DNA of 52,856 nt, the filler included, from Catajapyx aquilonaris (Eukaryota): assembly GCA_000934665.2 (NCBI GenBank). It is 2 parts of 2 records of this genome, joined end to end, with 100 filler letters (N's around TTAATTAATTAA, not from the genome) between each part and the next. Parts side by side here need not be neighbours in the genome. Positions count along the whole stretch, not along the records: positions 1 to 26,393 come from KZ539308.1; 1 more part is not named here. One strand, written 5' to 3'. The translations under genes and the position numbers were made by a program. The notes beneath the pieces were generated by a model that worked only from the letters and a program-made list of their open reading frames with translations, was not told where the DNA came from and made no database searches. Below are positions 5,936 to 50,671 of the stretch, one piece after another; within the stretch, counting starts at the first letter, position 1; each line of letters opens with the position of its first letter.

Positions 5936-8900
5936 CTACGCTTGGTACGATTCCCCAGCTGCCACATCGTCTGTTAGACTCTGCATAATGCTAAAGATAT
6001 GTCCTTCCTGGAGATTCAGCGAGGTAGGGGTGTCCATCGGATCCACGTGGCGGCCTTCGCACATCAAGTGTATCAGGGAGTCATGCACCTCCTGGAAATA
6101 ATTTTCATCATGTAAAGAAACCATTAGAATTCTGCGCAGTGATCATCACACTAAATACTACAACATTATAATGTAGCATGCAGGTAAATCCAGTGTATGC
6201 AGAATATCTTGGTAAAAATATAGACTATTGATCAATCAGGAAATCTCTTATCTACCATACCATAGTTTAGTATGAAGGTTTGGACATCCTAATAAAAACG
6301 TAAGACACTGACCATGATTCACCCGAGCTACCATTCAGCACGAGTAGGATTCATCCAGTATTAACATATTTGTATTCACCCCCTTGGTTTAGCAATATTT
6401 TCAAAGGTCATTTTTAGCTCATTTATCATCATCATCATCACAACATTTCCCTATAAGGGATAGTCAGCGATGAAGGGAGACGCAAGCTAACCTAACATAT
6501 GAACTAAATTAAAACTTGTAAAAATAAACATATAAACAACCAGTCCACCCCCCACCCCTGCCCATCTCAGACGACAGACACAGAATATTAAATTAAAATA
6601 TTACACTCTGCAACACGGTAATTTGCCAATTCAAGTCCTCCGCCCTTCGCCACCAGCCACTACTCCGGACGCCCTGGCCACGCCAACGTGTATGGCACCA
6701 CCCTTGCACCTCATCGACCCCGCCAAGGACGTCCCCTCTACCGCCGGAGCGAAGGAAACCTTATCCTCAGACCTATTTACCTATTTACCCATTAATTAAC
6801 CTACGCCATTTACACCTATCCAATCAAACAACCTTAGCCTCAGCCACGTCCATGGTCCTATTGGTTAAGACACTGACCCACCTGGTCCAACAATGTCTTC
6901 CTAGGGTAGCTCATTTAGCTCAAGTAATAATTGCCCAATCTAGTAGCAATCACCTGTCCAAATTATCTTAAATGACATAAGTTCATCTTCACTAAAGTGT
7001 GAAAGAACTCTGCAGTAAATCCTAACAGCCTCCATAATTAGTTGCTCAGTTCAGAAGCATGTGCTTGACCAATTCTGAAAATAATTGAGGGCTTTCTCGG
7101 AAAAACCCCATATGTCATCAAATTTGAAAAAAATTAGTTAAGGGTAGTATTACATACTTTCGGAAGCCCTCCATGCATTGCTTCTCTCCAATTTCTGAAA
7201 AAATTTCTGTTGTTGAAGATATTGAAGGGAAAAATCAGCCGCTTCCAACATTTTCCTACAAAACCCCACATGTCAAGTGTGATTTCCCGGAACAATCCCA
7301 CATGTCAGGGGTGACATGTGAGGTTTTTCATGGAATGATAGAATTAGATGGCTTCAGGAGTATCTGGGAAAACATAGTATGTCCCCAAGATGATCTAAGC
7401 ACTACCCCAGCATAATCCCTGCCAATGTCGTTGAGCCAATCATGAAACATATGGTAAGTCCTTCAAGGCTCTAGAGTCTCCCTACTCGTGGAGGAAAAAT
7501 TGACATATGTACATATTACCTTCCTGAAAAGCTTTCCGTCAGCCTCATGCACAAAATGTTATATGACGAAAATAAGCCACAACTTCATGTCATTTAGAAT
7601 GTTTACAGGAATATTTTCATTCAGAATTACACGAAAGTTTGGCATGCCTGGAAGAGACACATGAGACTATTCTGTATACAGGATTGCAGAGTGTGTCGAA
7701 GAAATTGAAAATTCCAAGCTCATGCAGGAAAAAGGAACTGCATCTTGCTAAAGCTGAAAATTTTATCAGTTGTCCAGTTCCTCTACAATCTACATGACGG
7801 TGCACTGCAATAACCCATGTGTATCCGATAAGAGGACTTATTTTACTCTCAAATGATCAGGAAATTGGTGTGATCAATGAATCTATGCATAAGAGGTGAT
7901 ATAATTATGTAGGCCTACATATTTCCATGAAAATAAGGTAGTTTTTGTGATAATTCTGGAAAAACCTCATATGTCACAAATTTCAAATTAAGATTATGAT
8001 CATTTTAAATAACATTGTAGTGTGTAATTTGCATAGTTGAATACAGATGTATGTCATCCACACTACAATAAAAAAACAGACTGGCTAAGGCAATTAGTAC
8101 GACCCATGGGCAGTTTTTTTGTTTCCTGAAAAATTGTTGTCCCTTGACATGTGGGTTTCTTCCAAGAAACCCCTAAATTGCAACTTGAAATAAGAGAAAA
8201 TTGGATATACTAACAGCACGGTTAGCATAAGCCTGGATCACTTTGCTGAACTTTGTGTTCCACTTCAGCTTGAGTTGAAATTCCATACCATCCTCCTCCC
8301 GTTCAATGTTTATGGCTAAATATCCGTCATCACGGTTATAGATAACCACATAGCCCTGCACATAGAAATGGAAGAAAGAACAATGTTAGCATCACCTGAT
8401 GGGAGGGGGTTGCTTGATGATTTTGGGAGTAATATTGGTAGCTGCACATATGCTTTTCACTTGTAACTATACATGGCAACGGGAAAAATGATTCACATTT
8501 TCTCAAATTTGCTGTGTCACAGATAGTGTTGTGTAGGCCAGAAAAACTGGCTTGGTTTTTGGGCTGTTCAGGTTTTTTGCAAGTCTCGTAATACAGTAAC
8601 AGGAAAGGTTGGTTGTTTTTTTTAATTTTAATAATACAAGACTGCATATATGAACTGTTTCGTTTTTAAACAGGATTGATTTTAACCGTTATAAACAGCA
8701 TGTCACTGTCTTATCTCTTTTTCATTTGCAACATCTAGGCATATATAATTGGAAATAGCATAGCATGTGTATGTGACAGGTGAAAACAGTTTTGTACTCT
8801 TCAAAGGGTCTAATGGTAACTGTTTTAACAATTATGTTGAGTATTTTTTTATTATTTATCATACCCCGTGCTAGAGCCTTTGGCTCTCTTAGGGGGGTGG

Positions 8901-9785
8901 ATTACCACCATTGGATGGGACCAGGGATAGGGAAGGAAGGAAGCGGCTGTGGCCTATTTTTACGGAAACTACCCCGGAATTGTCCTGGGGGGACCATGGG
9001 AAACTACAGAAAACCATGGTCAGGGTCGCCGGCCCCGGGATTCGAACCCAGGACCTCCCGATTAGCAGGCCGGCTCCTTATCCCCTACACCAACCTGCTT
9101 CGGTCCAATTATGTTGAGTAATTTTGATGGTAATTTTCAAAAAGTTGTTGTAATATTTGCCGGAATGCTACACTTGGTCTCTGCTGATCCTATTACTATC
9201 CTCACAAAACCTTTTCCATTACAATAAGTAGGCTCCCTTGTACTGTACATTTGGGGATGCCTAATGAGAGCAGAAATGATGGGGATTCATTGGGTGGAAT
9301 ATTCCCCTTTTTGTCAACAGTGACTTAGCAGTGAACTTTGCAGCCATCATTCCAAGACAAGTCTATTTTGGGCCATATTGGTTATGGGAAAGGTCAATGA
9401 CCTTTCATAGAAGGGTAAATGGAGGGTTCCTCTCACATCAGCCGTGTTTCTCGCCTTATTAGCAGAATGTTAGAGAGACCCGAGGTCCTCTCTAACACAC
9501 TGCTTCATAGCAGTAACTGTGCTTAGCAGTGAAACAAAAATTCCATAAATGCCACTGGAAATATATTGTGGGTGGAGCTTCTTAGCAATAGCTAGCAGCA
9601 TGTTAGCAGTAATAAGGCAATTTCTTGAACAGACAATGGTTCCAGAGATGAATTCTAGGATGACTATTGACTCTACAGTCTACATGTTTGTCCGATTCAT
9701 AAATTAACACACCCTGCATACTCACCATGGCTACTTCCTGGAAGTTGTTTCGAACCAGGAAGCACTCGTCCCTCAACTCGTCCAT
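5936..9785 (-). CDS. Divergent SUMO-like (ubiquitin-fold) protein, 118 aa, 3 exons (9785-9726, 8355-8215, 6091-5936), no C-terminal GG
   Basis: Three GT-AG phase-0 exons give MDELRDECFLVRNNFQEVAM|GYVVIYNRDDGYLAINIEREEDGMEFQLKLKWNTKFSKVIQAYANRA|EVHDSLIHLMCEGRHVDPMDTPTSLNLQEGHIFSIMQSLTDDVAAGESYQA*. By eye this follows the SUMO pattern (F.lK..T...K...AY..R / G..v...DTP..L...EG..I). Confidence 0.75.
6426..6906 (-). mobile_element. 5'-truncated RTE-like LINE 3' end
   Basis: Minus strand encodes a decayed RTE-type C-terminus (PRKTLLDQV...MDVAEAKVV*LDRCKWRRL); (GAT)n tail; 11-bp TSD TAGCTCATTTA (6415-6425, 6907-6917). Confidence 0.75.
7089..8173. mobile_element. PIF/Harbinger-like MITE
   Basis: Imperfect TIRs of about 28 bp (GGGCTTTCTCGGAAAAACCCCATATGTCA / TGACATGTGGGTTTCTTCCAAGAAACCCC), TGA/TAA flanks, internal repeats of the AAACCCCACATGTCA motif. 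Confidence 0.6.
8844..9105 (-). mobile_element. tRNA-derived SINE, family 1
   Basis: Homologous to 19540-19871; pol III box B on the minus strand; perfect 15-bp TSD CAATTATGTTGAGTA (8829-8843, 9106-9120). Confidence 0.9.
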
Positions 9786-11689: not shown

Positions 11690-11995
11690 ATAATAATATT
11701 ATAATAATAATTCATACCCCGTTATCAGCTGGCGGCTCTTTAGCAGGGGAGTTCATCCCAATTTTGTTTTGACTGGAACTCTTTGCTTTCATTTACTTTG
11801 CTTTTTGGGATAGGATAGGGACGGAAGGACGAAGCGGCTGTGGAATATTATTTAGGGAGCAATCCCGGAATTCTCCTGGGGGGACCGTGGGAAACCACAG
11901 AAAGCCACGGTTAGGATAGCCGGCCCCGGGACTCGAACCCAGGACCCCCCGTTTAGCAGTCGAACACCTTATCTACGCCACCAAACTGCTTTGGT
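11690..11995 (-). mobile_element. tRNA-derived SINE, family 1 (older copy)
   Basis: Same body (GAAGCGGCTGTGG...CCCGGAATT.TCCTGGGGGGACC...TCGAACCCAGGACC), (ATT)n tail, degraded TSD. Confidence 0.85.
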
Positions 11996-12067
11996 GAAAA
12001 TATCGATATTTATTGTACTGCTTACCTACATTTACCAGGCGCCATGCACATGATGCTTCACTTAATG

Positions 12068-12728: not shown

Positions 12729-13731
12729 CTATTCAGGTTTTCCCTTTATCACAGGCTCCTTCACATAGCCGTCATATGCCACAGAGAGGTCCTCCAGCAT
12801 GCTCTGCATAACCTGGAAAGGTACAACATCAGGAAGTGTAGTAGGTAATAATGTTAACAGCTTGCAGAGAAGATTATGTGGTTAACTTGTTAATCACTTT
12901 CTGGAGCATGTCACTGTTTTAAGTGACCCATCAGCATATATTTATTTGTTTAATAATTAATAACTATTAAGTCAATATATTTCTCGGGTGCCTTTTGGTC
13001 ACCTGTCTCCATCAGAGTGCATCATTTTCACTAGCGACTAACACCTAAATATATGTGTGTGTGGATATCCAGTAAGTAACTTTACCTCGCTGGGATCATC
13101 CAGTGCCTGGAGGCTGCAAGCATACAGCATCGCAATTTCCATCGTCTTCTCCATTGACGCTGACTTGCTTATTGGCTTATCTCCGGCCTTGTACTGCTCC
13201 TTCTCAACCTTCTTCTTGGCACCTGCCTCCACTTCCACTTCTTCATTAAATAAAGATGAGGCACCAGCGCCCAGACCTATCTGCTTGGCCTGCTTTTCGG
13301 GAGGGTTCAGGATCTGCATCAGGTACCGGGTGTCTTCCAGCACATCCTTCTGCTGGACAAGTCCCTGCTTCCTGTACCGGGATGCCCTTCTGCATTTCTC
13401 CTGATCCTGGTCCGGTGCCAGGACTGGTTCCTTTCCATTCGCCCAGTACCCGACATACTCCGTCATGAGAGGTTCATACGCATTCTCCTTCACCCGGTTT
13501 GTCCTCACTTTGGGACGGACTGAGGCCTTCCTCTGCCGCTAAAAGGGAATGTGACAATATAATATGGCTCTCTTAGGCTGCAAAATGCGCCCTAATTACC
13601 TCCCATTCAACCCATGCGGCGTCCTTTTCCTGGTGTTCTGTTGGGGTCACAGATTTGGTCAGGAGAGCCGCTGATGCCTCTTCATTCTTCACGCTACCAG
13701 ACCACCAGCTCATCCCTTCTCCTCCGGCCAT
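12729..13731 (-). CDS. Putative orphan protein, about 222 aa, 3 exons (13731-13600, 13538-13086, 12812-12729)
   Basis: Two GT-AG phase-0 introns join MAGGEGMSWWSG...AAWVEWE|RQRKASVRPKVRTNRVKE...LDDPSE|VMQSMLEDL...KGKPE* without stops; no family recognised. Confidence 0.55.
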
Positions 13732-17900: not shown

Positions 17901-18094
17901 TTAGCTAATTTGAGGATATGAGGGCTCAAAAATAGGCCCACACCATGGTTTCAGGGCAAATTGCATGATTAAAATTAGGCTTGAGGTTTCTAATTACTAG
18001 TTAACTGATGACCTACTCTTTTAATTTTCATGTTTGGCACACTCTGTCAAAATCGTCCGTCAATAATTTGCATACCTCACTTTACCGTCCTCAG

Positions 18095-19814
18095 CCAGGG
18101 GAAAAACTTCCTACGCTGAAGCCATTGTTGGCAGAGATGATGGAAGATGGCTTTTGCACTATCAGTGCAGGAGATGTAACGTTCAATGTAGCAGATGTCC
18201 TGAATAATGATATTTCTGATGTGAGCACCAGGCCAAGAGGGGGAGCTAGGTTGGCTATTGACCAGCATGTTACCAACAGACCCGGACGTTTGGCTGACAA
18301 TACTGGTCAAAATGACCAGGCAGTGGAATCGTTCAAGTGCCCCTACTGCAAAGTCACGTGCATAACTTCCTCCGACTTGGATGACCACAAGACTAGCACA
18401 GTACACCTTGTGAACTGCATGCTGTTTTGGTACCGGACTCGCCGCCAGCAATTGATGTTAGATAAGCATGGCGTTAAGATACGTTCTGGTCACCTAGAGT
18501 CAATTGAATCAGGTGTCGTGGACCTTGTGTGCTCAGCAGGCACCACTCAAGACAATGAGATGATGCTGAATGTCTTCAATACTGGGCGCAAGCCAATCAC
18601 CGTGGACCGTGCAGAATGGGTAGTGAAGCCACCAGGCATGTTCCTTGCATTGTCTGACAAACATGACATGATCCGATGCAAATCTAAGGTCAAGATCATG
18701 CCTGACAACCAGTATGCGATCAAAGTAACATACAGGGCAGTTAACAGAGTGACACAGATAGCAGTGCTGGGCTTTCAGATGAAGGCAGACGACACAGCCC
18801 TACCTTTTCATATAGTGAGGGAGATGGTGTTCCATGTGTCTGGGAATTTGGATGACATTACATTTCTCCAACCCTCACGCCCATATAAGCCACCACCCAG
18901 GGTTGCGCTTGAGCATCCCTCACGAGACATCGTCCCAGCACCTAAACCAATAAGGTTAGCACCAATTCCAGTGTTTTTATTATGTTGTGCTTGTCTCACC
19001 TGGAAAATGGGAAATCTCTTCACCATTTATTTGAACCCTTTCAAGGACTTCTCTATGATCTCATTCACTCCATTTATAGAAGAGTAGAAAGCTAGGGTGG
19101 AATTTTCATCCAACTGATAGTTACTGCTAACTTGGCAATAGGGCCTACCAGTGTTGGCCATGGTGCTCCTAACTGTCCTAAGTTAGTGTCAGTAACTAGA
19201 GCAGTAGGACGAAACTCCCCCCCCCCCNTATATTTTTCTGAACATATACGGAGTACATGGCTCTGTGATTATCTGGAAAGTGCAACATTTGGACTGATAA
19301 ATTAGAGAGGCATGCTGATCTCAGTGAGATAGCTTAATTTTGATTTCTCCTGGGGAATAGAGATTAATTTTGCCTTTCAAGTAAATTACATTTCAAGGAG
19401 TTTAATCCGACCTCAGTGTGTTGACAGCCGGTGTGACCAAAAATTTTCACAGAAGTAAAGGATATGCCGGTATTTGACAGAAATGGTTCATGGATGGGAA
19501 TGGCTGTCAGTGACACTAAATGCAAATTTTGTATAAGCACCGAAGCAGGTTGGCATAGTGGATAAGGCGTCCGACTGCTAATCGGGAGGTCCTGGGTTCG
19601 AATCCCGGGGCCGGCAACTCTGACCGTGGTTTTCTGTGGTTTCCCACGGTCCTTCCAGGAAAATTCCGGAGTTGCTTCCGTAATTTACAGGCCACAGCCG
19701 CTTCCTTCCGTCCCTATCCCATCCCAAAAAGTGCAGTAAAATGAAAGCAAAGAGTTCCAGGCAAAAGAAAACTTCCCCCCTAAAGAGCCGAAAAAGGCTG
19801 ATAACGGGGTATGA

Positions 19815-19874
<60 letters not shown>

Positions 19875-21218
19875 TTTGTATAAGCAACTCTCTAACACTA
19901 GTTTTTATTCTGTCTGTACTCTGTACATCATTTTCATGGAGTAAGAAATGTATCAAGTTCAATGTGTAAATCATCATTCACTGATAGAATATATTGTACG
20001 AATTGATTGCAGGGTTTTGAATAAGGGATATCAAACTCTGAAATTTCAGGGGGTGACCCAGGAGCTGAATATTTTGTCTTTCTAAATCTTGGTAGATTTA
20101 ACTCTCCAATCAAAAATAGGGCACTACATGAGACATCATTATCGTCAATTTTTACATGCCATTTTCATTTGGGTATTGTACCGTATATCTTGTCTGGTCG
20201 TTCTGGGCAGTGGGAGCTCCACTCCTTTCTTCCCACCAGCCAATCTATCAATATCATGCACACTTGCATACATGATTGAATGTTGGGAAGCCATAGGTGA
20301 GGCTTCCATTGTAATCAGGGAGCACGTTCCTTTTGCAGAAAATAAATAAGTTCTTTTATTTTCCAGTTCAGGATGTGCGGCACTGTATGAACTGGCGTTG
20401 AGTTTCTACAACACTCCTCCCCAGCTGGTAAAGATAATCAACCATGGCATGAATCCCTTTAAGGGCATGACATCTGAGGTTCAGCAGTACTTGGCTCCTA
20501 TTCAGTAAGTAATGTGAAGATAAGTTAGATGGCTGCAGGGGTGCTTGATAAAGCAATTTTTCTCCCAGGAGTGCCTTTTCTGAGGGCCTGAAGCCAGACA
20601 ACTACCAGTTGTACTTCTCAACACTGCTATATATTGAGGAGCAGCAGATGATGGTCGACATTCGCCAGTTTGATATGTGGGAGGTTGAAATTAAAAGGCA
20701 GAGAGGACATTACATATTGGAGGTACTGTGGAGTTTAAATAAAGTTAAACATCAAGGAATTACAAGGGCAGTATGCCCCTAGCTGTGCATTTGGGAAATG
20801 TATACAGGTTAACAATCACTTATTCAAAACTGAAAATTGATAAGCTCAGAATACCAAAAATAATAATTATTTTTGGTATTCTGAGCTTATCAATTTTCAG
20901 TTATGAAATGCCACCATGAAATTATTTCATGGTGGCATTTCATTCCAGGCAACATGATATTGATGTACCTCTTCTCTGTGATCCTCAATCTAAGAGTAAT
21001 GCGCCAAGTCTGCATTGTAGATGTATGTGTACAGGCATTGAAAGTTAGGAGGTTGACCTATTCTTGGAATATATGAGGCTATATGGCATACTGTAACACC
21101 ATTCTGAAATCCAAGAAATTCTAAATTCTGAAAGGTGCCTGGTTTTGAGGGTTTTGGATAATAGATTGTGAACTTGTATGATGCAATTGGCTGCCTCAGA
21201 AGCCAATGTTGTTGTTGC

Positions 21219-21259
<41 letters not shown>

Positions 21260-24200
21260 TGCATTACCCCATTGGGATTTACCACATCCTTTAGTGGGGG
21301 GGNGGGGGGTGGATTACCACCATCGGAAATTGGAGCCATATAAGAAGATCTTAATTAATTACTCCAGGGTAGGTAGGAGGGGATGTGCAAAGTGCATGTG
21401 CGCTAGTGGTCATTTTGTGAACTCCCCCGGGTAAGATTAGTTTTTAGGAAATTTCCACCCGAAATGAAGCCAGAGATAGAAGCCAATGTTTTTAAGACAG
21501 TATAATTATGCTAATTGCATGCAAATGGAAGGAGCAATGCTGCATTTTGAGATGACACCTGCACAGCTGTCATGGGGGCACAATGTGACTGGCTTAAGTT
21601 GGTAAGCACTTGAGAAATATCCTTGGCTACCAAGCAGTATGGGTGATCTCAGTGCCCACTAATCCTGTGACATGTGAGCAGAACATTAGCTGCTCAAGTG
21701 TATTTCCCAACCAGAACTCAGAGATTGAGCAGTTCTGCTCGAGCTAGCCTTTAATCACATTGTAAATGAAAATTGTGTTAATATAATTTATTTCAATAGG
21801 TCTTGGGCTTAGCTGAGAACCGACCTTCAGTTCTCCGTGGAGACTGCATCTATGTTCGTGAGCGCAATAAGACCCAGGTTGGTGCAAAGGAGTATGAGGG
21901 CCGTGTGATTGAAACCAGGGAAGTGGAGCTAGTGGTCGATTTCCATCAAAAGTAAGTAGTTACAGGCCATTGAAAAATTATAAAGTTTGTTTTTGGTACC
22001 AAAAGTTACTCATGAAGTAATATTTGATTTGTTTGGTTTTGCTTACTTCACATTCAGCCAGAATTGTAGGATACTGTCCACCAGCATGTGTGTGAGACCA
22101 CAACTGATTTATTTTAAACCTCAGTGCTTGAAAATTTGAAGACATTGTTGTTGTAGTGTAGCTGCTGTAGCTTACAACTAGGGGAGGAGAGCTTTCCCCA
22201 GGGAAGTTGTGACAGGTTCATACTTATAGCAGTCATCCTATTTTACATTGCAACTTATCTTATTCTGGAAAACACAACCTTCACTTTTTTAACATTAAAA
22301 ATGAATTTTTCTTCTTGTTGCATGCTGCATACTTCTTGTTACATGCTGCCTCCCCAACCATTTGTTACATTTCTGCTTACTGGGAAAAGGCTAGAAAGTT
22401 GATATTCTGTAAGCATTTTTTCTTAGTTCATACTGTATACTTGGGGAAAAAGAACTTTTTTCATTCTTAGCACACTTTGAAAATTAACTGTGCAGTATGA
22501 GAAGCTTTACGTATGTTATATGAAATGCATTCTTAACTTTTACAGTTTCTCACAGATCTACATGGACAAGATGAAGTTCAATGTGCGGTTTTCGTTCAAC
22601 CGATACCCCCTACGGATTATGCATCATGCTCTCGAGATATCAGCTGATCTTGGCCTGACCCGGGTACTATTTCCGGCAGCCATTGATGCAGGACGCCTTC
22701 CCATTGCATTATGGGGACCTTCCCATTTGATTCTTTTCAACCGTTTGTTGGAACACAATACGGCGCAGATGCAGGCCATCCGTAGCATAGTGTCTAGAAC
22801 TTCTCGTCCAGCTCCATACCTGGTGTTTGGGCCTCCAGGAACTGGGAAGACTGTCACGCTTGTGGAAGCCATAAAGCAAGTATGGAAGAGGTCCCCTGGT
22901 GCGCACATTCTGGCGTGTACACCATCCAATGCAACAGCTGATTTGCTAGCAGCATTGGTCTTGGAAATGGGCGGCATGGTGGTCTAACGGTTACGCCGTT
23001 GGCCAGCCAAGCGGGAGGCCGGGGTTCAAATCCCGTCCCCGTCACCTCTGCTTGGCCGGGTCTTTTTCCGCTTTTCACCCGACATGCCGGGGCAGAATTG
23101 CACTCCCTATCTGCCCGGGGCCAGTAGAAAAGGCCTGGTGTATTTTCATAAGTCAGAAATGACTAAAAATTTCAGCGCCCTCCCTAGGGAACCACCCCCT
23201 TCCCCCCTAAGAGAGCCCCTGGCTCTATCACGGGGTTAAAAAAAAAAAAAAAAAAAAAGCATTGGTCTTGGAACATGTGCCAAAGAGTCAAATTCTCCGC
23301 ATGCATGCACCATCTCGTCCGTGGATCCAGGTACTCAACATGAAATGTACTTCCATAGGTTGATTCATGCATGGCCCAGGCAACAAGTACCATTTTCCAT
23401 GATTTAAGTTATGTTTATCGCAAATTTTAATCAACAACACTTCATGAAGGGGAGGAATAGCAACCTGTGGTAATGCTAGGGAAATCTAATGTGTGTCATT
23501 ATGTGGTGTCTGTGAATGCAGTAGTCATTAGCCACTTGTATCACATCCATTGAAAAAAGCCATCCACCGTAGTATCATTTAAGTATGCATCCATTTATTG
23601 GCTGTTTATTGCTTGCTTGACCTACGTACGTGCGCCTGCTTGTTCCAGATTTTAAGTCTTAATACGTTACGGAATGGTCATGAATAGAAATAGCACACAA
23701 CTACTGGTGCCTGTGAATAATTACCCTTACATTGCATTTGGCAATATGTGAATTGGTCCAATGAAAACTTTCACAATCTGCTAGTTTTTGAGGGGAATGT
23801 CTTGCTATTAATCAGCACAATTTACCTGCAAATAACGTTACAGGTTCCAGAGAAGGTGAGGGCTGCCAGCAACAGGAAAGGACACGATTATTACTTCCCC
23901 GATAAGGAAACTATGATGAAATATCGTGTGGTGGTCACCACCTTGATGACAGCTGGGCGCATTGCCGGGATGAACTTCCCTCGTGACCACTTCACTCATG
24001 TGTTCGTGGATGAGGGTGGCCAGGCTCTTGAGCCAGAATTGTTGGTGGCTGTTGCTGGCATACTCAATGTCGCTCACGGTGGCCAGTTGGTCATTGCTGG
24101 TGACCCTCGTCAGCTTGGACCCATTCTGAGGTCACCGATCGTGGTGAACCGCGGCCTTGATAAGTCATATCTAGAGCGTCTGATGACTACCTCAGAGCTG

Positions 24201-25728
24201 TATGCACGGAAGGAAGTTGGGTATGACTTGCGTGTCATGACCAAACTTGTACAAAACTTCCGGTCTCACCCAGACATCTTGCATGTGCCAAACCTTCTGT
24301 TTTATGAATGCGAGCTAGAAGCTTGTGGTGATATGGCAGTGTCACAGTCTCTATGCGGCTGGGACATGCTCCCTACTAAAGGTTTCCCGATCATATTTCA
24401 TAATGTGATTGGTACAGATCTGCGTGAGGGTTCAAGGCCTAGCTTTTTCAACATGGAGGAGGTGATCCAAGTAGTGGAGTATGTCCAGAGAGTATTGGAA
24501 TACAGGATGTGCAAGGTGAAACCAGCAGAGATTGGGATTATCTCACCATACCGACAACAGGTGAAGAAGATTCGCACATTACTGAATAGAAAGCTGAAGA
24601 AAGAGGGAGGGAACGAGGTAACAGTGGGGACCACAGAGGAATTCCAGGGTCAAGAGAGGAAGGTAGTGATCATCTCCACTGTCAGGAGCAGCCCTGAGTT
24701 CCTGATTCAAGACACAAAGCATGCTCTCGGGTTCCTAAGCAATCCAAAGGCAAGTGTCAATGAGTAGTTCGTTAAGGCCCATTAGTTAGTAAATACAGTG
24801 AAACCTTTGAATCGCTGAATCACACAGGACCCGAAACCATTTTCATAATGGACTCGGGGTCTGCTCCGGACAGGTTTCACTGGACCATTCTACAAGGATT
24901 TAGCATTTAGTAAGGAGCACGGATTGTTTACTCTAGCAATCAGTTTAAACCCATTTATGCCTAAGGTTGAAATTTTTGAATATATTGTGTATGAAATTCA
25001 TATAGGTTACCCAGAAATATTCAAAGGAAGTGGGATATAAATTACTCGCACGTGACTGCCATTCATGCGGTACAGCAGTTTAATATAAAAGTCTCCGCCA
25101 GATCTGGGTTTTGGCGCTGGTGCCCCCCCCACAGGAATCGACTGCTGCTAGCCACCTGAATCCTAATCTGCAAACGTCCTCCGAGGAAAGAACAGTTTGC
25201 ATTGGTTCCGAAGGCGGCCAACCCAAAGTGACCCCCCAGTAGATTTCTGTGGTGGGGGGGGGGGGGGGGGGGGGGGTTTTTGAAGGATTTAAAAANGCGC
25301 AGCCGCCAAATTCCCCGCCTGGCGGAGACTTTCATATTAAACTACCGTCAACACGGGGTTAGGCTGGAAGAGACAGGGGACTGGTATTGACAGATGGTCC
25401 TTTGGAATCTTTTGCATATATGTAATAAATCAGTTTTTTTCTCTTCCATTAGCGAATGAATGTGGCTCTTACTCGAAGCAAGGCCCTTCTGATTGTGGTG
25501 GGCAATGCCAACATCCTTGGCCGTGACCCCAACTGGCGAGCATTTCTGGAGCATGTGCAGCGGAAGGGAGGATACCTTGGGGAACCTTACCAGGGGCCCA
25601 GAGCAGGCGATGTGTTGGACAACTCAGGGCAGGACTGGAACGACATGCTGAGTAAATTTGAGACCCTGGGACTGGGTCCAAGTGACAGGGAGCTCATACA
25701 AGGCCCTCAATGGAACATGCAACTTTAA
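18095..25728 (+). CDS. MOV10: MOV10-like (UPF1-family SF1) RNA helicase; exons 18095-18954, 20367-20504, 20569-20722, 21800-21951, 22546-23330 (interrupted by a SINE), 23844-24749, 25453-25728; candidate first coding exon 17091-17156
   Basis: MOV10 hallmarks NY...F.TLL.IEE.QM..DIR.FDM, GLAENRPSVLRGD, F.FNRYPLR, APYLVFGPPGTGKT, CTPSNATAD, FVDEGGQALEPE, AGDPRQLGP, NFRSHP, IISPYRQQV, EEFQGQE, NPK|RMNVALTR; intron phases are consistent. As assembled, the SINE introduces a stop at 22985-22987. Confidence 0.9.
19540..19871 (+). mobile_element. tRNA-derived SINE, family 1, full length (MOV10 intron)
   Basis: Box A TGGCATAGTGG, box B GGTTCGAATCC, Arg/Ser-like tRNA head, long (ATT)n tail, perfect 15-bp TSD AATTTTGTATAAGCA (19525-19539, 19872-19886). 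Confidence 0.93.
20805..21176. mobile_element. Degenerate pogo/Tigger-like MITE containing two perfect palindromes
   Basis: TA|CAGGTTAACAATC...GATTGTGAACTTG|TA termini. Confidence 0.55.
21211..21477 (-). mobile_element. 5'-truncated retroposon 3' end with (CAA)n tail
   Basis: 13-bp TSD AGAAGCCAATGTT (21198-21210, 21478-21490); shares GGGGTGGATTACCACCAT with SINE family 1 but has a different upstream body. Confidence 0.7.
22967..23257 (+). mobile_element. tRNA-Gly-derived SINE, family 2, full length, inserted in a MOV10 coding exon
   Basis: Head resembles tRNA-Gly(GCC) (GCATGGTGGT...GCCAAGCGGGAGGCCGGGGTTCAAATCCC); about 20-nt poly(A); perfect 16-bp TSD AGCATTGGTCTTGGAA (22951-22966, 23258-23273); second copy at 28453. 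Confidence 0.93.
25077..25343. mobile_element. MITE in the last MOV10 intron
   Basis: 25-bp near-perfect TIRs AGTTTAATATAAAAGTCTCCGCCAG / CTGGCGGAGACTTTCATATTAAACT; superfamily not determined. Confidence 0.6.
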
Positions 25729-27243: not shown

Positions 27244-27941
27244 TAAAATATTTAAAAATTTAACAAATAAATCAAACAATTTATTTGGCTTATGTCTTAT
27301 CAAAAGGCGCCACTGTGGCCAACCCTTCAACTACATTGAAAAAAAAAACCACTTGTGCTTGCAGCAATGTTGCCAATCCAGTGTTGTTATTGACAAGGGC
27401 TGGTTGCACGCGTACTACCGACTGTTCGCACCCACGTCCCCAAATGGCAAGCCGTTGTTTGTGCTACAAGCCATGATGCGTGAGTGTATGTTGAAAATGG
27501 GTGTTCATTGGTCGGCGGCACATGTGGGCAGTGAAAGGCAGCGAAATGATTCCCGCCGGCGCCTATTATTAACTTGCCAAAAACCTGATCTCCCATTTGA
27601 AAATCACGGCCCACTTGACGGACTAATAGCCACATCACTCACTTGGTACCCTCAGAGCTTGTTTCTTGCATCATATAAGGTGAGCTGCTATACCAGGTTA
27701 GGTGTGGGGGATAATAAGGAGTGGCTGTTGATGATGGTGGTGGCCATGCGGTTATGTAGAAGCAGATGGTACGACGATGGGGGAGGGTAAACGAAGTGTC
27801 GTACGAGTGATGGATCGGAGGTTGTTCCGGGGGCAAGCAGGGATTAGGGTGATGTCACAGGGGAAATCCGGGGATATAAGTCAGTTATCCGGAAAAGCTG
27901 ATGAAGAAGCATAAAACTAGTTGTAGGACAAAATTAGTCCG

Positions 27942-28439
27942 TTCAGGCCACCACACGACTATATACAAACAGGTAGCTTCGATTCAAGCCATCACACGAC
28001 TGTATACAAACAGGTAGCCTCGATTCAGGCCATCGCACGACTGTATACAAACAGGTAGCCTCGATTCAAGCCATCACACGACTGTATACGAGCAGGTAGC
28101 CTCAATTCAGCCCATCGCACGACTGTATACAAACAGGTAGCCTCGATTCAAGCAATCGCACGACTGTATACAAACAGGTAGCCTCGATTCAGGCCATCGC
28201 ACGACTGTGTACAAACAGCTAGGTAGCTTCTATTCAGGCCATCGCACGTCTGTGTACAAACAGGTAGCTTCGATTCAAGCCATCACACGACTGTATACAA
28301 ACAGGTAGCTTCGATTCAAGCCATCACACGACTGTGTACAAACAGGTAGCTTCGATTCAAGCTATCGCACGACTGTATACAAACAGGTAGCTTCGATTCA
28401 GGCCATCGAACGATTGAATACAGTCAAGTAGCCTCGATT
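27942..28439. repeat. 41-bp minisatellite, about 12 copies
   Basis: Head-to-tail unit TTCARGCCATCRCACGACTGTRTACAAACAGGTAGCYTCGA with no spacers. Confidence 0.92.
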
Positions 28440-28452
28440 AGGGGAGGCAAGG

Positions 28453-28628
28453 CAGCATTGGTGGTCTAGTGGTTACGCCACTGGCCAGCCAAGCGGGAGG
28501 CTGGGGTTCAAATCCCGTCCCCGTCACCTATATGCTGCTTGGCCGGGTCTTTTTCCGCTTTTCACCCGACATGCCGGGGCAGAATTGCACTCCCTACTCT
28601 GTCCAGGGCCAGGAGAAAAGGCCTGGTG
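28453..28628 (+). mobile_element. tRNA-Gly-derived SINE, family 2, 3'-truncated copy
   Basis: High identity to 22974-23139; tail and poly(A) absent. Confidence 0.85.
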
Positions 28629-41893: not shown

Positions 41894-44415
41894 TCATCCT
41901 CTATTAAAACACATTGAGGCCGAGCTGGTGGTGAAAGTTGTTGTGCTCGGTTTCATATGCGCATCTGCTATCTGATCTAACTCCTTCTCAAATACGCTCC
42001 AGTCATGGCTGTCTGAAGAAGTCACGCTCAAGTCACTCTCATCATTCCTCCTCACTCCTTCCAACTTGACGGTGGTTGGCTGTCCATCAACAATGGATCT
42101 TGCATATACCGAACCAGCTGTGTCCGCAACCCCCAGGTACTTGCAATACTGGAGCGCTTCTACTGAGGAGTCAACAACACTATCTTCACTCTGGTATGCT
42201 TTGGAGTCCACTCGAATAATCTGAACTGAATCGACGTAAAAGACGAACAGGTGTGGCTTCCGATACGCTGTGAGAAAAAGAATACCATCAGTGCCAATAA
42301 TCTGGTGTTGGATTCCCATTGTCCACCCACCTAACTGTTGAAGCTCTCCTCTCCATTTGACGTCCTTATCCCTACTTCTCCTTCCACTCAGAGAATTCAC
42401 GAAGATTCCAACCTTCCTGAAGGCAACCATCATCTCTCCTCCAATTTGCACCACAGCCAGAGGATGCCCCACTGATGAGGGTGTCAGTGAAGGATCAGAG
42501 GTATCCAGGGAATCATATGTGGGGAGTGTGTCTGAGGACACATCAATCTCTATCAACCGATTGCAGGCCAGTAAGACAAATGAGCTGTTTGTGAAGAGCA
42601 AGGAAGTGCAGGGCTCTTCTCCAGGTATGTTGAAGGTGGCACGTAGCACGTACATTTTTTCTTCTGTAGGAAATTCCCACCGGAAGAGGCTAGAGAGACA
42701 CAAGAACACTGATAAGCATTTTGGTATGCCAAAAATGTTTTGGACACACGATATTGTTTCATGATCCACTCAACTCATAGTGGGACAGATTTACCTTAGT
42801 TTCCTCCTAGTGGCCACACACAAATAGTAACTCCCAACGTCAAACTTGACACATCCCTGTGGCTGTCCTTTCAATAGCTTAGCTTCTACTGCAGGCTTTG
42901 CGACCTTGTGTGCTTTTGCTGCTATTATTAAAACCTCTTTCCATAGATACATCAGTGCATCACCAACTTGAAGGAGAACCACACCTGGCAGTTCAGCCAC
43001 TCTAATTGCTGTCACCTCCCCAGTGACTCCAGCAATGGGGACAACCGCACCACTGTCCAAATGTAAGGAGTGCAATCCATCAGTTGTCCCCAGGATGACA
43101 ATGTCCTGAGGTAATTGCACGGAGCAATTGACATACAATCCACTTGTTTGTAGAAATGGTGTTATGCTTATAAGACTAGTCGCTTCCAGTTCGGGGGATG
43201 ATGATGGTAAAGTGGTGGAGGACTGAAATAGACAAATATGTAATCATCCATTCATGTTACAGTGACAAGGACTCACCGTCTTGGCAGAGGTCACACTAGG
43301 TCGACTTGCAGTCCTGTGAGGTGATGCCCTATCCTGTTGCTGGACCATCTCATCCGACTTGTTCTTCTGGATCTCACTGTTGCGACTTATCCTCTCCTTT
43401 GATGTCTCTTCATTCAAAAAGGCCACCTGTGTTGATGATTCTGGTTTCAGGTACGCAATATCCTTTCTTGACCAGTGACACTCGACCTGATCGTTGTCTA
43501 CCCTATCCTGAAGTTGAAACGACACCTGAATCACAAAGATGATCATTAATTTTTGGGATCTTTTGAGAGAACAGGTGTGCATTCTGGTGTCTCTTGCCTG
43601 CTTTGCTCGGTTCTCCAATCCTCGACTATTGTTCCCTGATAATCGCTTGGCTTCTTTCACCAGCTGTTCATACTTCTTCCTCAAAGTGTAGCTGAAAATA
43701 TTGTCATGTAATGTCTCTTATTTGCATAAGATTCATAACCTGGCTCGAATTAACTCACTTTTCTTTCACAACTTTGGCCATACCCTCGTCGTACTGATTC
43801 ACCAGCATCTTGTAGCGCTCCAGGTTATTATTCATCATTGTGCAAACCTCCTTCAGCTCTTTGTTCTCCTGAAATCATTTTTATATCCGTAAGTAATTTC
43901 TATAGGGACTGTTTTGTATTGCCCACCTGTAGCAGTAAGGCCTCAAACTTTCCATTGTCTTCTCCTTTGTCCTCTTCAGATTCCTTTCGATTGTTGGCCA
44001 TGAAATCTGCTGCCTTGCCTGAACCCTTCTTTAGAACCGGCTCTCCTTTACCTCCAGTCTCTGTTATCAGGAGGTCACTGACAATGTCCACATAATAAGA
44101 CTCCTTATGCCTCTTGGTCTCTGGTCCCTGCGACAGAGTCTCAACACTTTCCTGCTCTTGCAGTTCCCCTTTCTGCAATAATGTTCCAACTCTATTGATT
44201 GTTGACTCAACAATGATAAAAAATTACGATCATTCTGCCCCAGATTAAACTCATAACAATGGTTTTAATGTCCACCAAAACTGGACAATGATATTGTCAA
44301 GAACTCATACTTGGTTGAGAACCTGGCTCATGTCCTCAGGGATATCCTCCAACACCGTGTTCTTCTCAACTGTCCCCACATCAACCTTCTGGGGCTGGCT
44401 GCAAGATATCTCCAT
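41894..44415 (-). CDS. Coiled-coil + CNH (citron homology) domain protein without a kinase domain
   Basis: Exons about 44415-44311, 44172-43927, 43868-43759, 43691-43277, 43222-42795, 42689-42331, 42267-41894 splice in frame. C-terminal half has CNH motifs ILGTTDGL, LCVA, LDTSDPSL, PLAVVQI..EMMVAF...GIFVN..GRRSR..DVKW, AYRKPHLFVF...SVQI. Confidence 0.78.
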
Positions 44416-44977: not shown

Positions 44978-46245
44978 ATGACTGCAATTAACCTACTGCT
45001 GATTTCCCTTCTAGCAGGTATGTTTGCTCTTAAACTAAAGTGTTCTGATACGTATACTAACAAAAAGTATGACTTTCAGGTCCTCTAACAGTCAGTTCTG
45101 TAAAGGACGACTGTTCTTCAGACTCATTGTACGACAGACTTTCTCAACAGTTGCAACAAGATCTGGCTCCTAACTGGCAGTTTCCTACACACAGTTATGA
45201 ACTTACCAGTATATGCCAGTAAGTGCGCAGGGGTCAGCTGGGGATAAGCATATCAAGTAACATTTTGTACCTTCAGAAAACAAGTGGTTTACGATACCCT
45301 CACAATCCTGGAGGAGTGTTACAATGACCAGGCTGCCATTGGATTCTTATCATCTATTTTGTACCCGGGAGAAAAATTAACAAAAGAATATGTATGCAGT
45401 AATCACATAAATGGTGAGTATAGAGAGTTTGAATATTAGGATGAGGCTAAACGAATTTTATTGTCATAGAATTTTTGGAAAATAGTCACTACTTGAATGA
45501 TATTTTGCCCTACTTACACCGATGCGTCGAGAGACTTCCAATGCAGTTCAACCACCTGATGGTGGATTTCTCCATCCCATTCACATGCTGGTAAGACCAG
45601 TTCATACGTAAGCAACACATGTCATTATATTCACTTATGTATTATAAGCCTATGGAAAGAGGTGACCAATTGTGCCATTGGAGTGGCGGCTACTACCTGG
45701 GGATGGAGGGCTGAAAAGCCATTAGCAAACTCATTGATATATCCTTTTGAGAACACAACTGCATATCGGGTAAGGCTGACTTCAAAGGTCAAAGAGAAAA
45801 TAAACAACTGGTTTTTCTACAGGTTTACTGCGAGCCGGTAGACTGCAGTGGAATGATATCACCCATACCAAGTCCGGAATCTTGGACCACTCCAAAACAC
45901 ACGACACCGCCGCCATACACCACAAAAGAACCCACCACACCGTACCCCACAGAAGGACCCACGACACCGTACCCCACAAAAGAACCCACCACACCGTACC
46001 CCACAGAAGGACCCACGACACCATACCCCACAAAAGAACCCACAACACAGTACCCCACAACAAAACCTACAACAAAAGAACCCACAACGCTGTACCCCAC
46101 AACAGAACCTACAACGCAGTACCCCACAACAGAACCGACTTCTGAACCAACTACTACTACCCATGATGACATCAAGAAGGAAATAGACATTTCTATCGAG
46201 ATAGACACGCGTATCCATTTCCATGAGGTTGAACGAGACAACTGA
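44978..46245 (+). CDS. Secreted protein: signal peptide, Cys-containing N-terminal domain, mucin-like PTTPYPT(K/E) repeats; 6 exons
   Basis: MTAINLLLISLLAG start; five GT-AG introns of about 55-65 bp splice in frame; 27/30-bp coding repeats at about 45900-46160. Confidence 0.8.
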
Positions 46246-46425
46246 GGTGTCAACAGCTAGTCAACAGACTACCAGAAATCAAAAGGCAATATAATTTTAT
46301 CAATATAAATTTATTTCCTTTAAAAGGCATGTTGTAAATCACTTCTTTTACACTACAAACAATAAAATTTTCCTGATATCAAAATGGTAAAGCGCCTGTC
46401 GATCAGTCTTCTTTTTTTACCTTTC

Positions 46426-48191
46426 TTAAAACTCCTCGCCTGGGTATGCTTCCTCATCCAGGTAGATGTCCCCAATCTCCAAGGAGAGAGCGGCCTCGAG
46501 CTCCTCCACTTCGAATGAGGGAAGTTGGTCTGCGTGGTCACCACCTCCCTCCCCAAGAAGGAAGTCCTCCTCATCCTCAACCACCTCTCCTCCTTCCTCC
46601 TCTTCGCTCTTCCTCACCCTCAACATCTTCGTCTTCCTCCTCCTCTTCCTCAACACCTTCTTCTTCGCCTTCTGCTCCTTTTTCCTCTACATCTTCCTCA
46701 GAGACAAGGTTGTCCTCATCCAGTCTATCAGTGTCCTCACCCTCAACATCTTCTTCCAGTATTCTTCGCCTTCTGCTCCTTCTTCCTCAACATCTTCCCC
46801 AGAGAGACGGTTGTCCTCATCCAGTCTATCAGTGTCCTCACCCTCAACATCTCCTTCTTCGCCTTCTGCTCCTGCTTCCTCAACTTCTTCCCCGGAGAGA
46901 AGGTTGTCCATCCGACTATCAGTGTCCTCATCCTGTGAGATGGGGGCATTTTCTGCCTCCAGGTGGTCATCGTCCTCTTGGCTTGGTATGGTATCAAGAC
47001 TTATTGTATCGCGTAAGTCGACTTCGTACCTTGCTGATGACTCCATATCCGTGTGCAGGTCATCGGACGCAGTGTCCTCCAGGTCTGCTGCTGGGATGAC
47101 ACCGACGTCTGCCTCCTCTGCCGATGGAGTCTCATCCACTGCTTCCTCCGCCTCTATGTTGTCCAATTCTGGGTTGGTGGTGGCTGCAGCTGAAGATGAC
47201 CCACCTGGGTCAGCCTCAAAGGTTTTCTGGGTCGTCGGGTTGTCTTCCGGAGTGGTCTTCACACCCCGTGTGCGAAGGATCATGGTCAACGGGGGAAGGT
47301 CTGTGAATCGCTTTGTCCTGCGCCTCTTGGGAGGTACATCACTCGGGGTCGGGTCACTCCTGGCCCTCAACTTGCTCCAGTCCCGTGGTGGTCGTACGTC
47401 CAACTTGGTGGGATTACTGGTGCCCTTCTTCGACATCTTGACATGCACCTTCCTGGGGGGAGCCCTCCCGACTGCCTTTGACTTCTTCCCTCCTCTCTGG
47501 TGGTCATCAGGCACCCTGTGACGTTTCCTCATTACCTCAGGTTCTACCTGAAACCTCACCTTCGCTGGGGAGACATCCAGCCAGTCAAACGCCCCTTCGC
47601 TGCACAGTTGCTGGTACAGTACCTGGCAGGCGAAATGCAGTTCAGCATTGTCTCTCACTGCACACAACACTCAAGTGACACATACCCCAGATTGACCTGT
47701 TGGAACCGCGAAGTACTTCGGATGCTTACTGGCAACGTTCTTGTACCTCTGGGCAGTCTCCGAAGGGATCTTGTCCCACCTGACCTGGGCCACAGCCAAC
47801 CACTCCTCCGAGTTGTTGTTCGTGGTCTGGGACACGATGCTCTGAATTCACATGGGACTGTACATTAGACAATTGGGACGCCAAATGGGACAGGTGAGAT
47901 TACCTCCCGGACATGGGCGTAGAAGAGCACGAATGCCTTCTGGTCGAGGGTGGTCATATCCTTTACCCCGATGACCCTGCTGGCCTCCCAGACTGCCCTC
48001 TGCGTCCTCCCCTCCTCCACCCTCCTCCTGGCCTCCCCCTCCCACCTCCTCCTCCCACCCTCCCCCAGCTTCATCCACCTTTCCCTCACCACCTCCTCCT
48101 TCTTCCTCAGCAGATCGGAAGAGAACACGCGTAAATGCTCCAACACCATCTGCTCCTTCTCATTAGACCGAAAGAGAGTGAACCCGTCCAT
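46426..48191 (-). pseudogene. Dual HMG-box protein, copy A; exons 48191-47904, 47841-47686, 47622 onward; acidic tail disrupted (stop at 46687-46689)
   Basis: Paralogous to copy B with the same intron positions. An out-of-frame repeat block (about 46610-46760) introduces TAG before the conserved C-terminus, which resumes in the original frame. Could instead be a truncated functional gene or an assembly error. Confidence 0.6.
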
Positions 48192-48566
48192 CTTCGTCTG
48201 TCCTCAATGGACTCTCGCCAATCGCAGGGTTGGTCAAATGTGGTCTTCTGCATGGAACTGCGAGTCAGACGTGTGTGAATAGGCAAGCGGAGTTCGAATG
48301 TAGTTAGTGTCAACAAATAGGTGTTGCTTGGTTGGATGGGTGTTGTCAGTGGCAACAATGTGTTTACAGGTTTCCTCTGATTGTTCCAAACCGAAGAAAA
48401 TAATTACCTTGCAGAAATCTAACGGCAATGCAATTTTATCAATATAAATTTATTACCTTCAAAAGGCATGTTGTAAATCACTTCTTGTACACCACAAACA
48501 ATAAAATTTTCTTACGAGTATCAAATGATAAAGAGCTTCTCGACCAGTCTTCTTTTTTTACATTTC

Positions 48567-50129
48567 TTACAACCCCTCACCTGGGTATCCTTCCTCATCC
48601 ATGTGGATGTCTCCAATCTCCAAAGAGAGAGCGGCCTCGAATTCCCCTTCGAATGAGGGAAGTTGGTCTCCGTGGTCACCACTTCCTCCCTCCCCAAGGA
48701 GGAGGTCCTCTTCATCCTCAACCTCACCTTCTTCCTCCTCTTCCTCAACCACACCGTCTTCCTCCTCTTCCTCACCCTCACCGTCTTCTTCGCCTTCTGC
48801 TCCTTCTTCCTCAACTTCTTCCCCGGAGAGAAGGTTGTCCTCATGCAGCAGACTATCCTGTGAGGTGGGGTAATCTTCTGTCTCCAAGTGGTCATCGTCC
48901 TCTAGGCTTGGTATGGCATCACTTGCATCGTGTGCCTCGTTCCCTGCTGCTGACTCCATATTCACCTGCAGGTCATCGGAAACAGTGTCCTCCAGGTCAG
49001 CTGCTGGGTCTGGCTCTTCTGCCGATGGAGTTTCATCCACTACTTCCTCCACCTCCATGTTGTCCAATTCTGGGTTGGTGGTGGCTGGAGTTGAAGATGA
49101 CCCTTCTGGGTCAGCCTCAATGGTCTCCTGAGTCGTCGGGTTGTCTTCATGAGTGGTCTTCCCACGGCGTGGGCGAAGGATCATGGTCATCGGGGGAAGG
49201 TCGGCGAATCGCTTTGTCCTGCGCCTCTTGGGAGGGACATCACTTGGGGTCGGGTCAGTCCTGGCCCTCGACTTGTTCCTGTCCTGTGGTAGTACCTTCC
49301 TGTCACTACTGGTGCCCTTCTTCGACTTCCTGACAGGCACCTTCCTGTCACTACTGGTGCCCCTCTTCGACATCTTGACAGGCACCTTCCTGGGAGGAGC
49401 CCTCCCGACTGCCTTTGACTTCTTCCCTCCTCTCTGGTGGTCATCAGGCACCCTATGCCGCTTCCTCATCACCTCAGGTTCTACCTGAAACCTCACCTTC
49501 GCTGGGGAGACATCCAGCCAGTCAAACGCCCCTTCGCTGCACAGTTGCTGGTACAGCACCTGCAGGCGAAATGCGTCAGTATTGTCTCTCACTACATAAC
49601 ACTCACGAGACACGTACCCCAGATTGACCTACTGGAACCGCGAAGTACTTCGGATGCTTCCTGGCAACTTTCTTGTACCTCTTGGCAGTCTCCGAAGGGA
49701 GCTTGTCCCATCTGACCCGGGCCACAGCCAACCACTCCTCCGGGTTGTTGTTCGTGGTCTCGGAAGCGATACTCTGAATTCACATGGGACAGTACATTAG
49801 ACAATTGGGACGCCAAATGGGACAATTTAGCTTACCTCCCGGACATGGGCGTAGAAGAGCACGAAGGCCCTCTGGTCGAGGGTGGTCATCCCATTTTCTC
49901 CGACGACCCTGCTGAACTCCCAGACTGCCCTCTGCCTCCTCGCCTCCTCCACCCTCACCCTGGCCTCCCCCTCCCACCTCCTCCTCCCACTCTCCCCCAG
50001 CTTCATCCACCGTTTCCTCACCACCTCCTCTGTCTCCTTCTTCTTCCTCATCTCGCAAGAGGACCGACGGAAATCATCCAGCGCCATCTGCTCCTTCTCA
50101 TGAGACCGAAAGAAACTGAAGCCGTCCAT
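48567..50129 (-). CDS. Divergent dual HMG-box protein with basic region and long acidic tail, copy B, 480 aa; exons 50129-49836, 49773-49618, 49559-48567
   Basis: Box 1-like DGFSFF...RKRWMKLGESGRRRWEGEA; box 2-like RAFVLFYAHVRE|SIASE...ARVRWDKLPSETAKRYKKVA; K/R-rich middle; E/D-rich C-terminus; GT-AG phase-0 introns; downstream AATAAA on the minus strand. Confidence 0.75.
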
Positions 50130-50671
50130 CTTCGTCTGTCCTCAATAGTCTGTCGCGAAGCACAGGGTTGGTCAAATGTGGTCTTCTGCAAGGGACTGCG
50201 AGTCAGACGTGTGTGAAGCAAGCGGTGTTCGAACGTAGAATGAGTGTCAACAAAGGTGTTGCCTGGATGGATGGGCGTTGTCACTGGCAACACCTTTGTT
50301 GACACCAGAGACCAGAGAATCAAATATTCATCCGGACAATGCCAATCCCACCAAAAAACCTTTCTGTAAAAAAAGGCCAAGTTCTCCTGACTGCTTGGCC
50401 GTCAAAAGTGGTGAGATCTGAATCCGGACAATGCCAATTGAAACACGAAATTGACAAACTGGTGTCAATAACGTCACAACAAATGGCTTGAATGACCTGA
50501 ACCATGACAGTGCTTCAGAAGAACGCCTTTTCACCCATAATTACCGGTATGAAATAATAATTCGTACGATGTCAGCAACAACGCTATGAAATATTCGCAT
50601 GATTTCGCCACTGACAAGTGAGTGTTCATATGTCAAAGGTGAAGGTGACTTGTCCAATGTCAAGATGATTA

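Follow-up and report, generated by a model that had tools for sequence, protein, structure and literature searches.

A window of 52.8 kb (the whole stretch of DNA analysed here, 52,856 nucleotides (nt) of the Catajapyx aquilonaris assembly GCA_000934665.2, of which positions 1 to 26,393 come from KZ539308.1) carries on its minus strand a compact gene for a SUMO-like protein in which the di-glycine used for conjugation is replaced by two aspartates. The gene has three exons and two introns (Table 1), and when the exons were joined by script they gave a coding sequence of 357 nt, that is, 118 amino acids (aa) and a stop. A three-exon open reading frame (ORF) of 118 aa had been claimed in a first-pass annotation of this DNA, and direct reading of the sequence confirmed it at the same length, with GT-AG introns that are both in phase 0. 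The start codon has an A at -3 and a G at +4, and an in-frame TAA lies 9 nt upstream of it. In the joined product exons 2 and 3 meet at YANRA/EVH (the slash marking the intron), and at the C-terminus a further nine residues come after MQSLTDD; the first-pass annotation had read both the junction and the C-terminal QSLTDD in the same way. Exon 1 is the least certain part of the gene model. On the minus strand between 8356 and 16000 no other phase-0 frame of 5 codons or more starts with ATG and ends at a GTRAGT donor, and exon 1 showed homology to nothing, with no Pfam match.

Codon usage and GC content by codon position look coding. A codon log-odds score, trained on 1160 codons from the Pfam-supported exons of the window, was above zero in every exon and highest in frame 0 (+6.5, +14.8 and +5.3 for exons 1, 2 and 3), and overall it came to 0.23 per codon compared with 0.13-0.28 in the training exons. 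Against 3000 stop-free null stretches per length, the observed scores were reached by 2.9%, 5.1% and 16.9% of stretches for the three exons in turn. GC content is 0.49 over the coding sequence and 0.61 at third codon positions (GC3), as against 0.39-0.41 in the introns; GC3 rises to 0.80 in exon 1. Moreover, GC at second positions is the lowest of the three codon positions, as it is in the neighbouring coding exons.

Both homologous exons have SUMO as their best match in the PDB. With a threshold of E 10, exon 2 matched 34 chains, 30 of them bearing the name SUMO or SMT3; tandem SUMO2 came first (E 1.3e-4), and single SUMO2/3 chains stood at E 0.39-0.73. Exon 3 matched two chains only, fly SUMO (2k1f, E 0.062) and tandem SUMO2 (E 0.33), sharing 11/34 residues with the former, the hexapeptide DTPTSL among them, and 7/33 with SUMO2. 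The two exons have the same residue offset to SUMO2 in these alignments, so that the match is colinear and runs without a gap over the junction. Intron 2 falls at the aligned equivalent of the Q/G step that follows YCER in SUMO2, which is presumably also where animal SUMO genes carry a phase-0 intron (YCERQ/G).

An exhaustive phmmer search with exon 3 against 1.84 billion representatives returned 6 matches with E no higher than 0.001. Half of these have multiple SUMO-like domains (SLDs); Pfam finds 3, 4 and 7 Rad60-SLD stretches in them, and they score by summed repeats. The other three (a VWA protein, an ankyrin protein and a ligand-gated channel that has an insert of low complexity) are repeat proteins and were regarded as spurious. 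From the three multi-SLD proteins, whose matches to PF11976 are strong, we cut 14 SUMO-like units and made a SUMO profile of them. The spliced product scored 47.5 bits on this profile (E 6e-17 for one sequence, in a single alignment of residues 36-104), although the exon 3 share of that score is partly circular, the units deriving from exon 3's own matches, whereas the exon 2 share is independent of how the units were selected. The best of 1000 shuffles reached 5.9 bits. A match to the PF11976 superfamily over the whole beta-grasp domain was thus obtained, by way of this home-built profile. In a six-frame scan of the window, comprising 2187 stop-free pieces, only the exon-bearing pieces matched the profile (E 2.7e-6 for exon 3 and 7.4e-4 for exon 2), the next-best piece standing at E 1.3. 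Identity of the product to any of the 14 units, as aligned by MAFFT, is 14.5-30%. The resemblance to SUMO that had been noted by eye is upheld by the PDB matches and by the profile score, and on these alignments we regard a SUMO-derived origin of the sequence as nearly certain. A chance ORF is ruled out by the colinear two-exon match to SUMO, and a retrocopy by the two introns that the gene carries.

The defining change lies at the C-terminus. D108 and D109, encoded by GAC GAT, stand where the conjugation Gly-Gly would sit. HMMER aligned QSLT of exon 3 on QQQT of 2k1f (residues 83-86 of 88), directly before the last two residues of that chain, and MAFFT placed T107-D108-D109 in the x-G-G columns of 7 of the 14 SUMO-like units, the other 7 also being without GG. 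These alignments bear out the earlier claim that TDD takes the place of TGG and that the C-terminus contains no GG. Indeed there is no GG anywhere in the product, all six of its glycines being isolated, and the C-terminal Gly-Gly that marks a conjugatable SUMO is absent, with DD in its place. One G-to-A change at the second position of each would be enough to turn the glycine codons GGC and GGT into the two Asp codons. As described in PMC12687455, SUMO proteases expose the Gly-Gly that comes right behind Q-x-T in SUMO, and E1 adenylates it. Because DD replaces the Gly-Gly that these proteases and E1 need, we expect neither maturation nor conjugation of the protein.

Table 1. Features of the SUMO-like gene and its predicted product, followed by other features of the window (positions along the whole window)
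Feature	Position	Strand	Description
Exon 1	9785-9726	-	60 nt, 20 codons; ATG at 9785-9783; donor GTGAGT
Intron 1	9725-8356	-	1370 nt, GT..AG, phase 0; GC 0.41
Exon 2	8355-8215	-	141 nt, 47 codons; pyrimidine-rich acceptor tract then cag; donor GTTAGT
Intron 2	8214-6092	-	2123 nt, GT..AG, phase 0; GC 0.39
Exon 3	6091-5936	-	153 nt + TAG, 51 codons; acceptor ccag; stop at 5938-5936
N-terminal extension	~31 residues	-	hydrophobic strand-like stretch; no lysine
SUMO-type beta-grasp domain (predicted from sequence)	about residues 32-104	-	SUMO alignment
Exon 2 content		-	last part of extension, followed by strands 1 and 2 and helix 1 (the SIM-groove half; SIM, SUMO-interaction motif)
Exon 3 content		-	strands 3-5 and 14-residue C-terminal tail
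YVVIYNRDD, codons 22-30	8352-8326	-	hydrophobic stretch then acidic residues, just before strand 1
D108 D109	5971-5966	-	GAC GAT
SINE-like repeat (SINE, short interspersed nuclear element)	8940-9112		inside intron 1
SINE-like repeat	11831-12003
SINE-like repeat	about 19364-19684
Alanyl-tRNA synthetase gene, first coding exons	2675-2070, 1210-950	-	downstream of the SUMO-like gene
166-codon open frame	13038-13538	-	upstream of the SUMO-like gene
MOV10-like RNA helicase gene	18005-24767	+	~8 kb upstream of the SUMO-like gene
Tandem array of 41-nt unit	27878-28521		at least 15 copies by spacing
CNH-domain exon	41894-43243	-
Pro/Thr-rich open frame	45751-46245	+	PTTPYPT-type repeats
Tandem duplication	46273-48279, 48412-50217		~2-kb unit, blocks 80-94% identical
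Lig_chan exon	51679-52854	-	runs off the window end

The two halves of the predicted domain have not been kept equally. Strand 2 and helix 1, which make up the half with the groove for SUMO-interaction motifs (SIMs), share 11 of 27 residues with SUMO2 and the other half 7 of 33, so that the groove half is kept about twice as well. Among the groove features retained are QLKLK in place of QFKIK, T-x-x-SK and AY-x-x-R. At the positions altered in the QFI and IKR groove mutants of SUMO, which we took from PMC12077520, the protein has Q/L/L and L/K/W, residues that would fit a SIM-binding groove. Its net charge is acidic (21 D+E versus 10 K+R). The stretch EMEEGDTIE of fly SUMO, which we take to be equivalent to the region of the SUMO1 acidic patch, aligns with NLQEGHIFS here, and one of its five acidic residues is kept. 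In SUMO1 the patch comprises positions 67, 83-86 and 89 and lies on the enzyme-facing side, as given in PMC12687455. Judged by this alignment, the acidic enzyme-facing surface of SUMO appears to be mostly lost in the protein.

We favour the reading, at a probability of roughly 55%, that the gene encodes a lineage-specific, non-conjugatable SUMO paralogue that is expressed and functions via non-covalent binding. Without Gly-Gly there would be no maturation by SUMO proteases, no adenylation by E1 and no attachment to targets; the protein, if made, would act free, through non-covalent contacts. By occupying or bridging SUMO-interaction motifs the paralogue could serve as a decoy or an adaptor for SIM proteins. 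A SIM-directed role is most likely, and better supported than binding to Ubc9 or to SENP proteases, because the groove half is the better kept and the acidic enzyme surface is eroded. All three kinds of partner had been proposed in the first-pass annotation; of these, SIM proteins, with 11/27 groove residues kept, would be likelier partners than Ubc9 and SENP, for which the corresponding figures are 7/33 residues and 1/5 acidic residues. That the product is transcribed, folds, has lost conjugation and binds SIMs we infer from the sequence. Despite the 14.5-30% identity to SUMO units, neither the ORF nor any of the four splice sites is broken. Moreover, the six-frame profile scan of both strands revealed no second SUMO-like domain and no tandem array in the 52.8 kb, in agreement with the earlier description of a stand-alone SUMO-like domain.

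Several observations weigh against a functional paralogue. Three protein searches failed to turn up a close relative: a search with exon 2 for longer homologous proteins yielded 1 candidate and none scored, a search at near length (38-123 aa) with the 70-codon stop-to-stop piece around exon 2 yielded no candidate, and the exhaustive phmmer search with exon 3 yielded no close single-domain relative. Exon 1 is without homology support. Pfam, run on single exons only, placed exon 2 in Rad60-SLD (PF11976) below the cut-off (E 0.047, 13.9 bits against 23.8) and found no match for exon 3, and the profile that does match is open to the partial circularity described above. For exon 3 the codon-usage result is weak (a null fraction of 0.17). 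Nor are open frames of such lengths rare: of random positions in the window, 16% carry one of 47 codons, 14% one of 51 and 3% one of 118. The canonical AATAAA was not seen by eye in the 940 nt 3′ of the stop. Lastly, should the gene have been copied recently from a SUMO-like gene of this genome that had diverged before, its intact ORF says little about selection.

Part of this evidence would be expected of a silent or decaying SUMO duplicate, which lost its Gly-Gly by two G-to-A changes and is now unexpressed or free of selection. We hold such a duplicate, the chief competing reading, to be possible, though clearly the less probable of the two. The three unproductive protein searches fit it, while at the same time they fit the earlier suggestion that the gene is lineage-specific, which to that extent stands. 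Likewise, each Asp codon is one transition from a Gly codon, the acidic enzyme-contact surface is eroded, and open frames of such size arise by chance at 3-16% in the window. Against a decaying copy stand an ORF, a start context and four splice sites that have all stayed intact at 14.5-30% identity, a core pattern that still scores 47.5 bits, and a coding-like composition in all three exons, the non-homologous exon 1 included.

A non-conjugatable, lineage-specific paralogue has to be set beside the SUMO-like proteins already described. Compared with canonical SUMO (fly Smt3 and human SUMO2/3) the protein is likewise a single domain, colinear and gapless from strand 1 to Q-x-x-T, with a DTPTSL identical to that of 2k1f, SIM-groove residues largely kept and an acidic charge. 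It differs in having DD for GG, in that 21-41% of aligned residues are identical, in that the acidic patch after DTPTSL is mostly lost, and in its N-terminus, where canonical SUMO has a short disordered tail and the protein described here an extension of about 31 residues with a strand-like stretch. One or two SUMO genes have been described in insects (PMC4866545); that paper uses none of the terms 'SUMO-like', 'di-glycine', 'pseudogene' and 'intron'. Keyword searches of the open-access literature, which were non-exhaustive, found no animal stand-alone SUMO-like protein without GG. We file the gene with the non-conjugatable SUMO-like proteins, as a putative further member. If this is true and the gene is expressed, an animal would encode in its own genome a protein that competes for SUMO readers or links them as an adaptor, a free, unattachable SUMO look-alike with parallels in plant SUMO-v and in the non-covalent role proposed for human SUMO4.

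Plant SUMO-v, whose function is itself unclear, was described by Augustine et al. 2016, as given in PMC11371177. By that description it too stands alone, has a SUMO-type beta-grasp domain behind an N-terminal extension and lacks GG at its C-terminus, but it is reported to be conserved among land plants, whereas the gene here is without detectable relatives. Common descent of the two, compared here by description, is unlikely. The likeness raises a more specific version of the SUMO-binding proposal, in which the gene would encode an expressed reader-decoy like SUMO-v and YVVIYNRDD would be a built-in SIM that caps the protein's own groove or that of the next molecule. Capping its own groove, the protein would be auto-inhibited until the segment is displaced. 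Placed in a neighbour's groove, the segment would build non-covalent poly-SUMO-like chains, and such chains could recruit or sequester multi-SIM proteins, for example SUMO-targeted ubiquitin ligases. YVVIYNRDD looks SIM-like by eye, and such patterns are frequent in beta strands, so it is only a lead; we think this version unlikely.

Human SUMO4 offers a second parallel, being a paralogue that is probably unconjugated and for which a non-covalent role, the enhancement of SENP1, has been proposed (PMC12687455; bioRxiv 10.1101/2022.03.23.485504). Unlike the gene here, SUMO4 has retained the GG and has 85-88% identity with SUMO2/3, and it is a nearby proline that hinders its maturation. The grass DSUL proteins are described as concatemers (PMC6680281; PMC11371177), whereas the gene here is single-domain and has no tandem array. 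Another case of concatenated non-conjugatable SUMO-like units was encountered in a library protein (P0003, 613 aa), which has three SUMO-like domains, none ending in GG, with the tails ADTGE, AETGE and TSDS.

The RENi family (Rad60, Esc2 and NIP45/NFATC2IP) resembles the gene in that its SUMO-like domains are never conjugated and bind non-covalently within the SUMO pathway: Esc2 binds Ubc9 (PMC13645794) and NFATC2IP limits SUMO chain formation by UBC9 (PMC12077520). RENi proteins are long, with two SUMO-like domains, whereas here there is one in 118 aa, with a poorly kept Ubc9-facing surface. Given that RENi proteins end in an unconjugated SUMO-like domain (PMC549199), the exons could in principle be the 3′ end of a longer gene, of the RENi type or for some other multi-domain protein, which we judge improbable. 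The two-domain arrangement was not found within the window, on either strand, by a scan that would miss a first domain if it had diverged very far or lay beyond the window. Between the upstream TAA and the ATG, 1 nt short of the latter, there is an AG that might serve a longer transcript as an acceptor, but its context is purine-rich and poor for that purpose, the in-frame stop is 9 nt upstream, the ATG itself has a strong context, and there is a single candidate first exon under the strict donor rule. The 166-codon open frame further upstream on the same strand could likewise be taken for a missing 5′ part; however, it has no Pfam family, and none of its 14 candidate homologues scored. The next upstream gene, the MOV10-like helicase, is on the opposite strand. 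Moreover, the domain resembles SUMO itself, with DTPTSL as in fly SUMO.

It is highly improbable that the protein is still a modifier by way of the lone glycine, Gly113, 5 residues before the stop, which cleavage at VAAG/ESYQA would expose as part of a terminal Ala-Gly, the tail then exceeding that of SUMO by four residues. We know of no dedicated enzymes for a modifier of this type, Pfam detected none nearby in the window, and the E1/E2-facing SUMO surface is eroded. SUMO maturation and E1 adenylation use a Gly-Gly right after Q-x-T, where this protein has DD (PMC12687455). The non-conjugatable paralogue remains a well-formed gene model whose standing is that of a prediction from sequence.

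Intron 1 of the SUMO-like gene contains a SINE-like repeat, further copies of which lie elsewhere in the window (Table 1), with 80% identity between a pair. The element is probably tRNA-derived, because ARAGORN calls a tRNA-Ser(gct)-like structure in the copy near 19545-19616. Downstream of the SUMO-like gene and on the same strand is an alanyl-tRNA synthetase gene, whose first coding exons match Pfam tRNA-synt_2c at E 1.8e-65 and 1e-18. The profile begins at residue 54 of the first frame, and the gene may encode an N-terminal extension, e.g. a targeting peptide. The MOV10-like RNA helicase gene, divergent to the SUMO-like gene, has at least 3 large exons, which encode a JAZ-type zinc finger, a MOV-10 Ig-like domain and then AAA_11/AAA_12.

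The remaining features lie further along the window. On the minus strand, each of the duplicates of the tandem duplication has a long open frame (327 and 353 codons) with stretches rich in acidic residues and in Ser/Pro, and it belongs to no Pfam family. A shorter tandem array is made up of a 41-nt unit. The CNH-domain exon and the Lig_chan exon, the latter of ionotropic glutamate-receptor type, are ordinary neighbouring genes. Finally, the Pro/Thr-rich open frame is mucin-like, and may be coding or a mere repeat.

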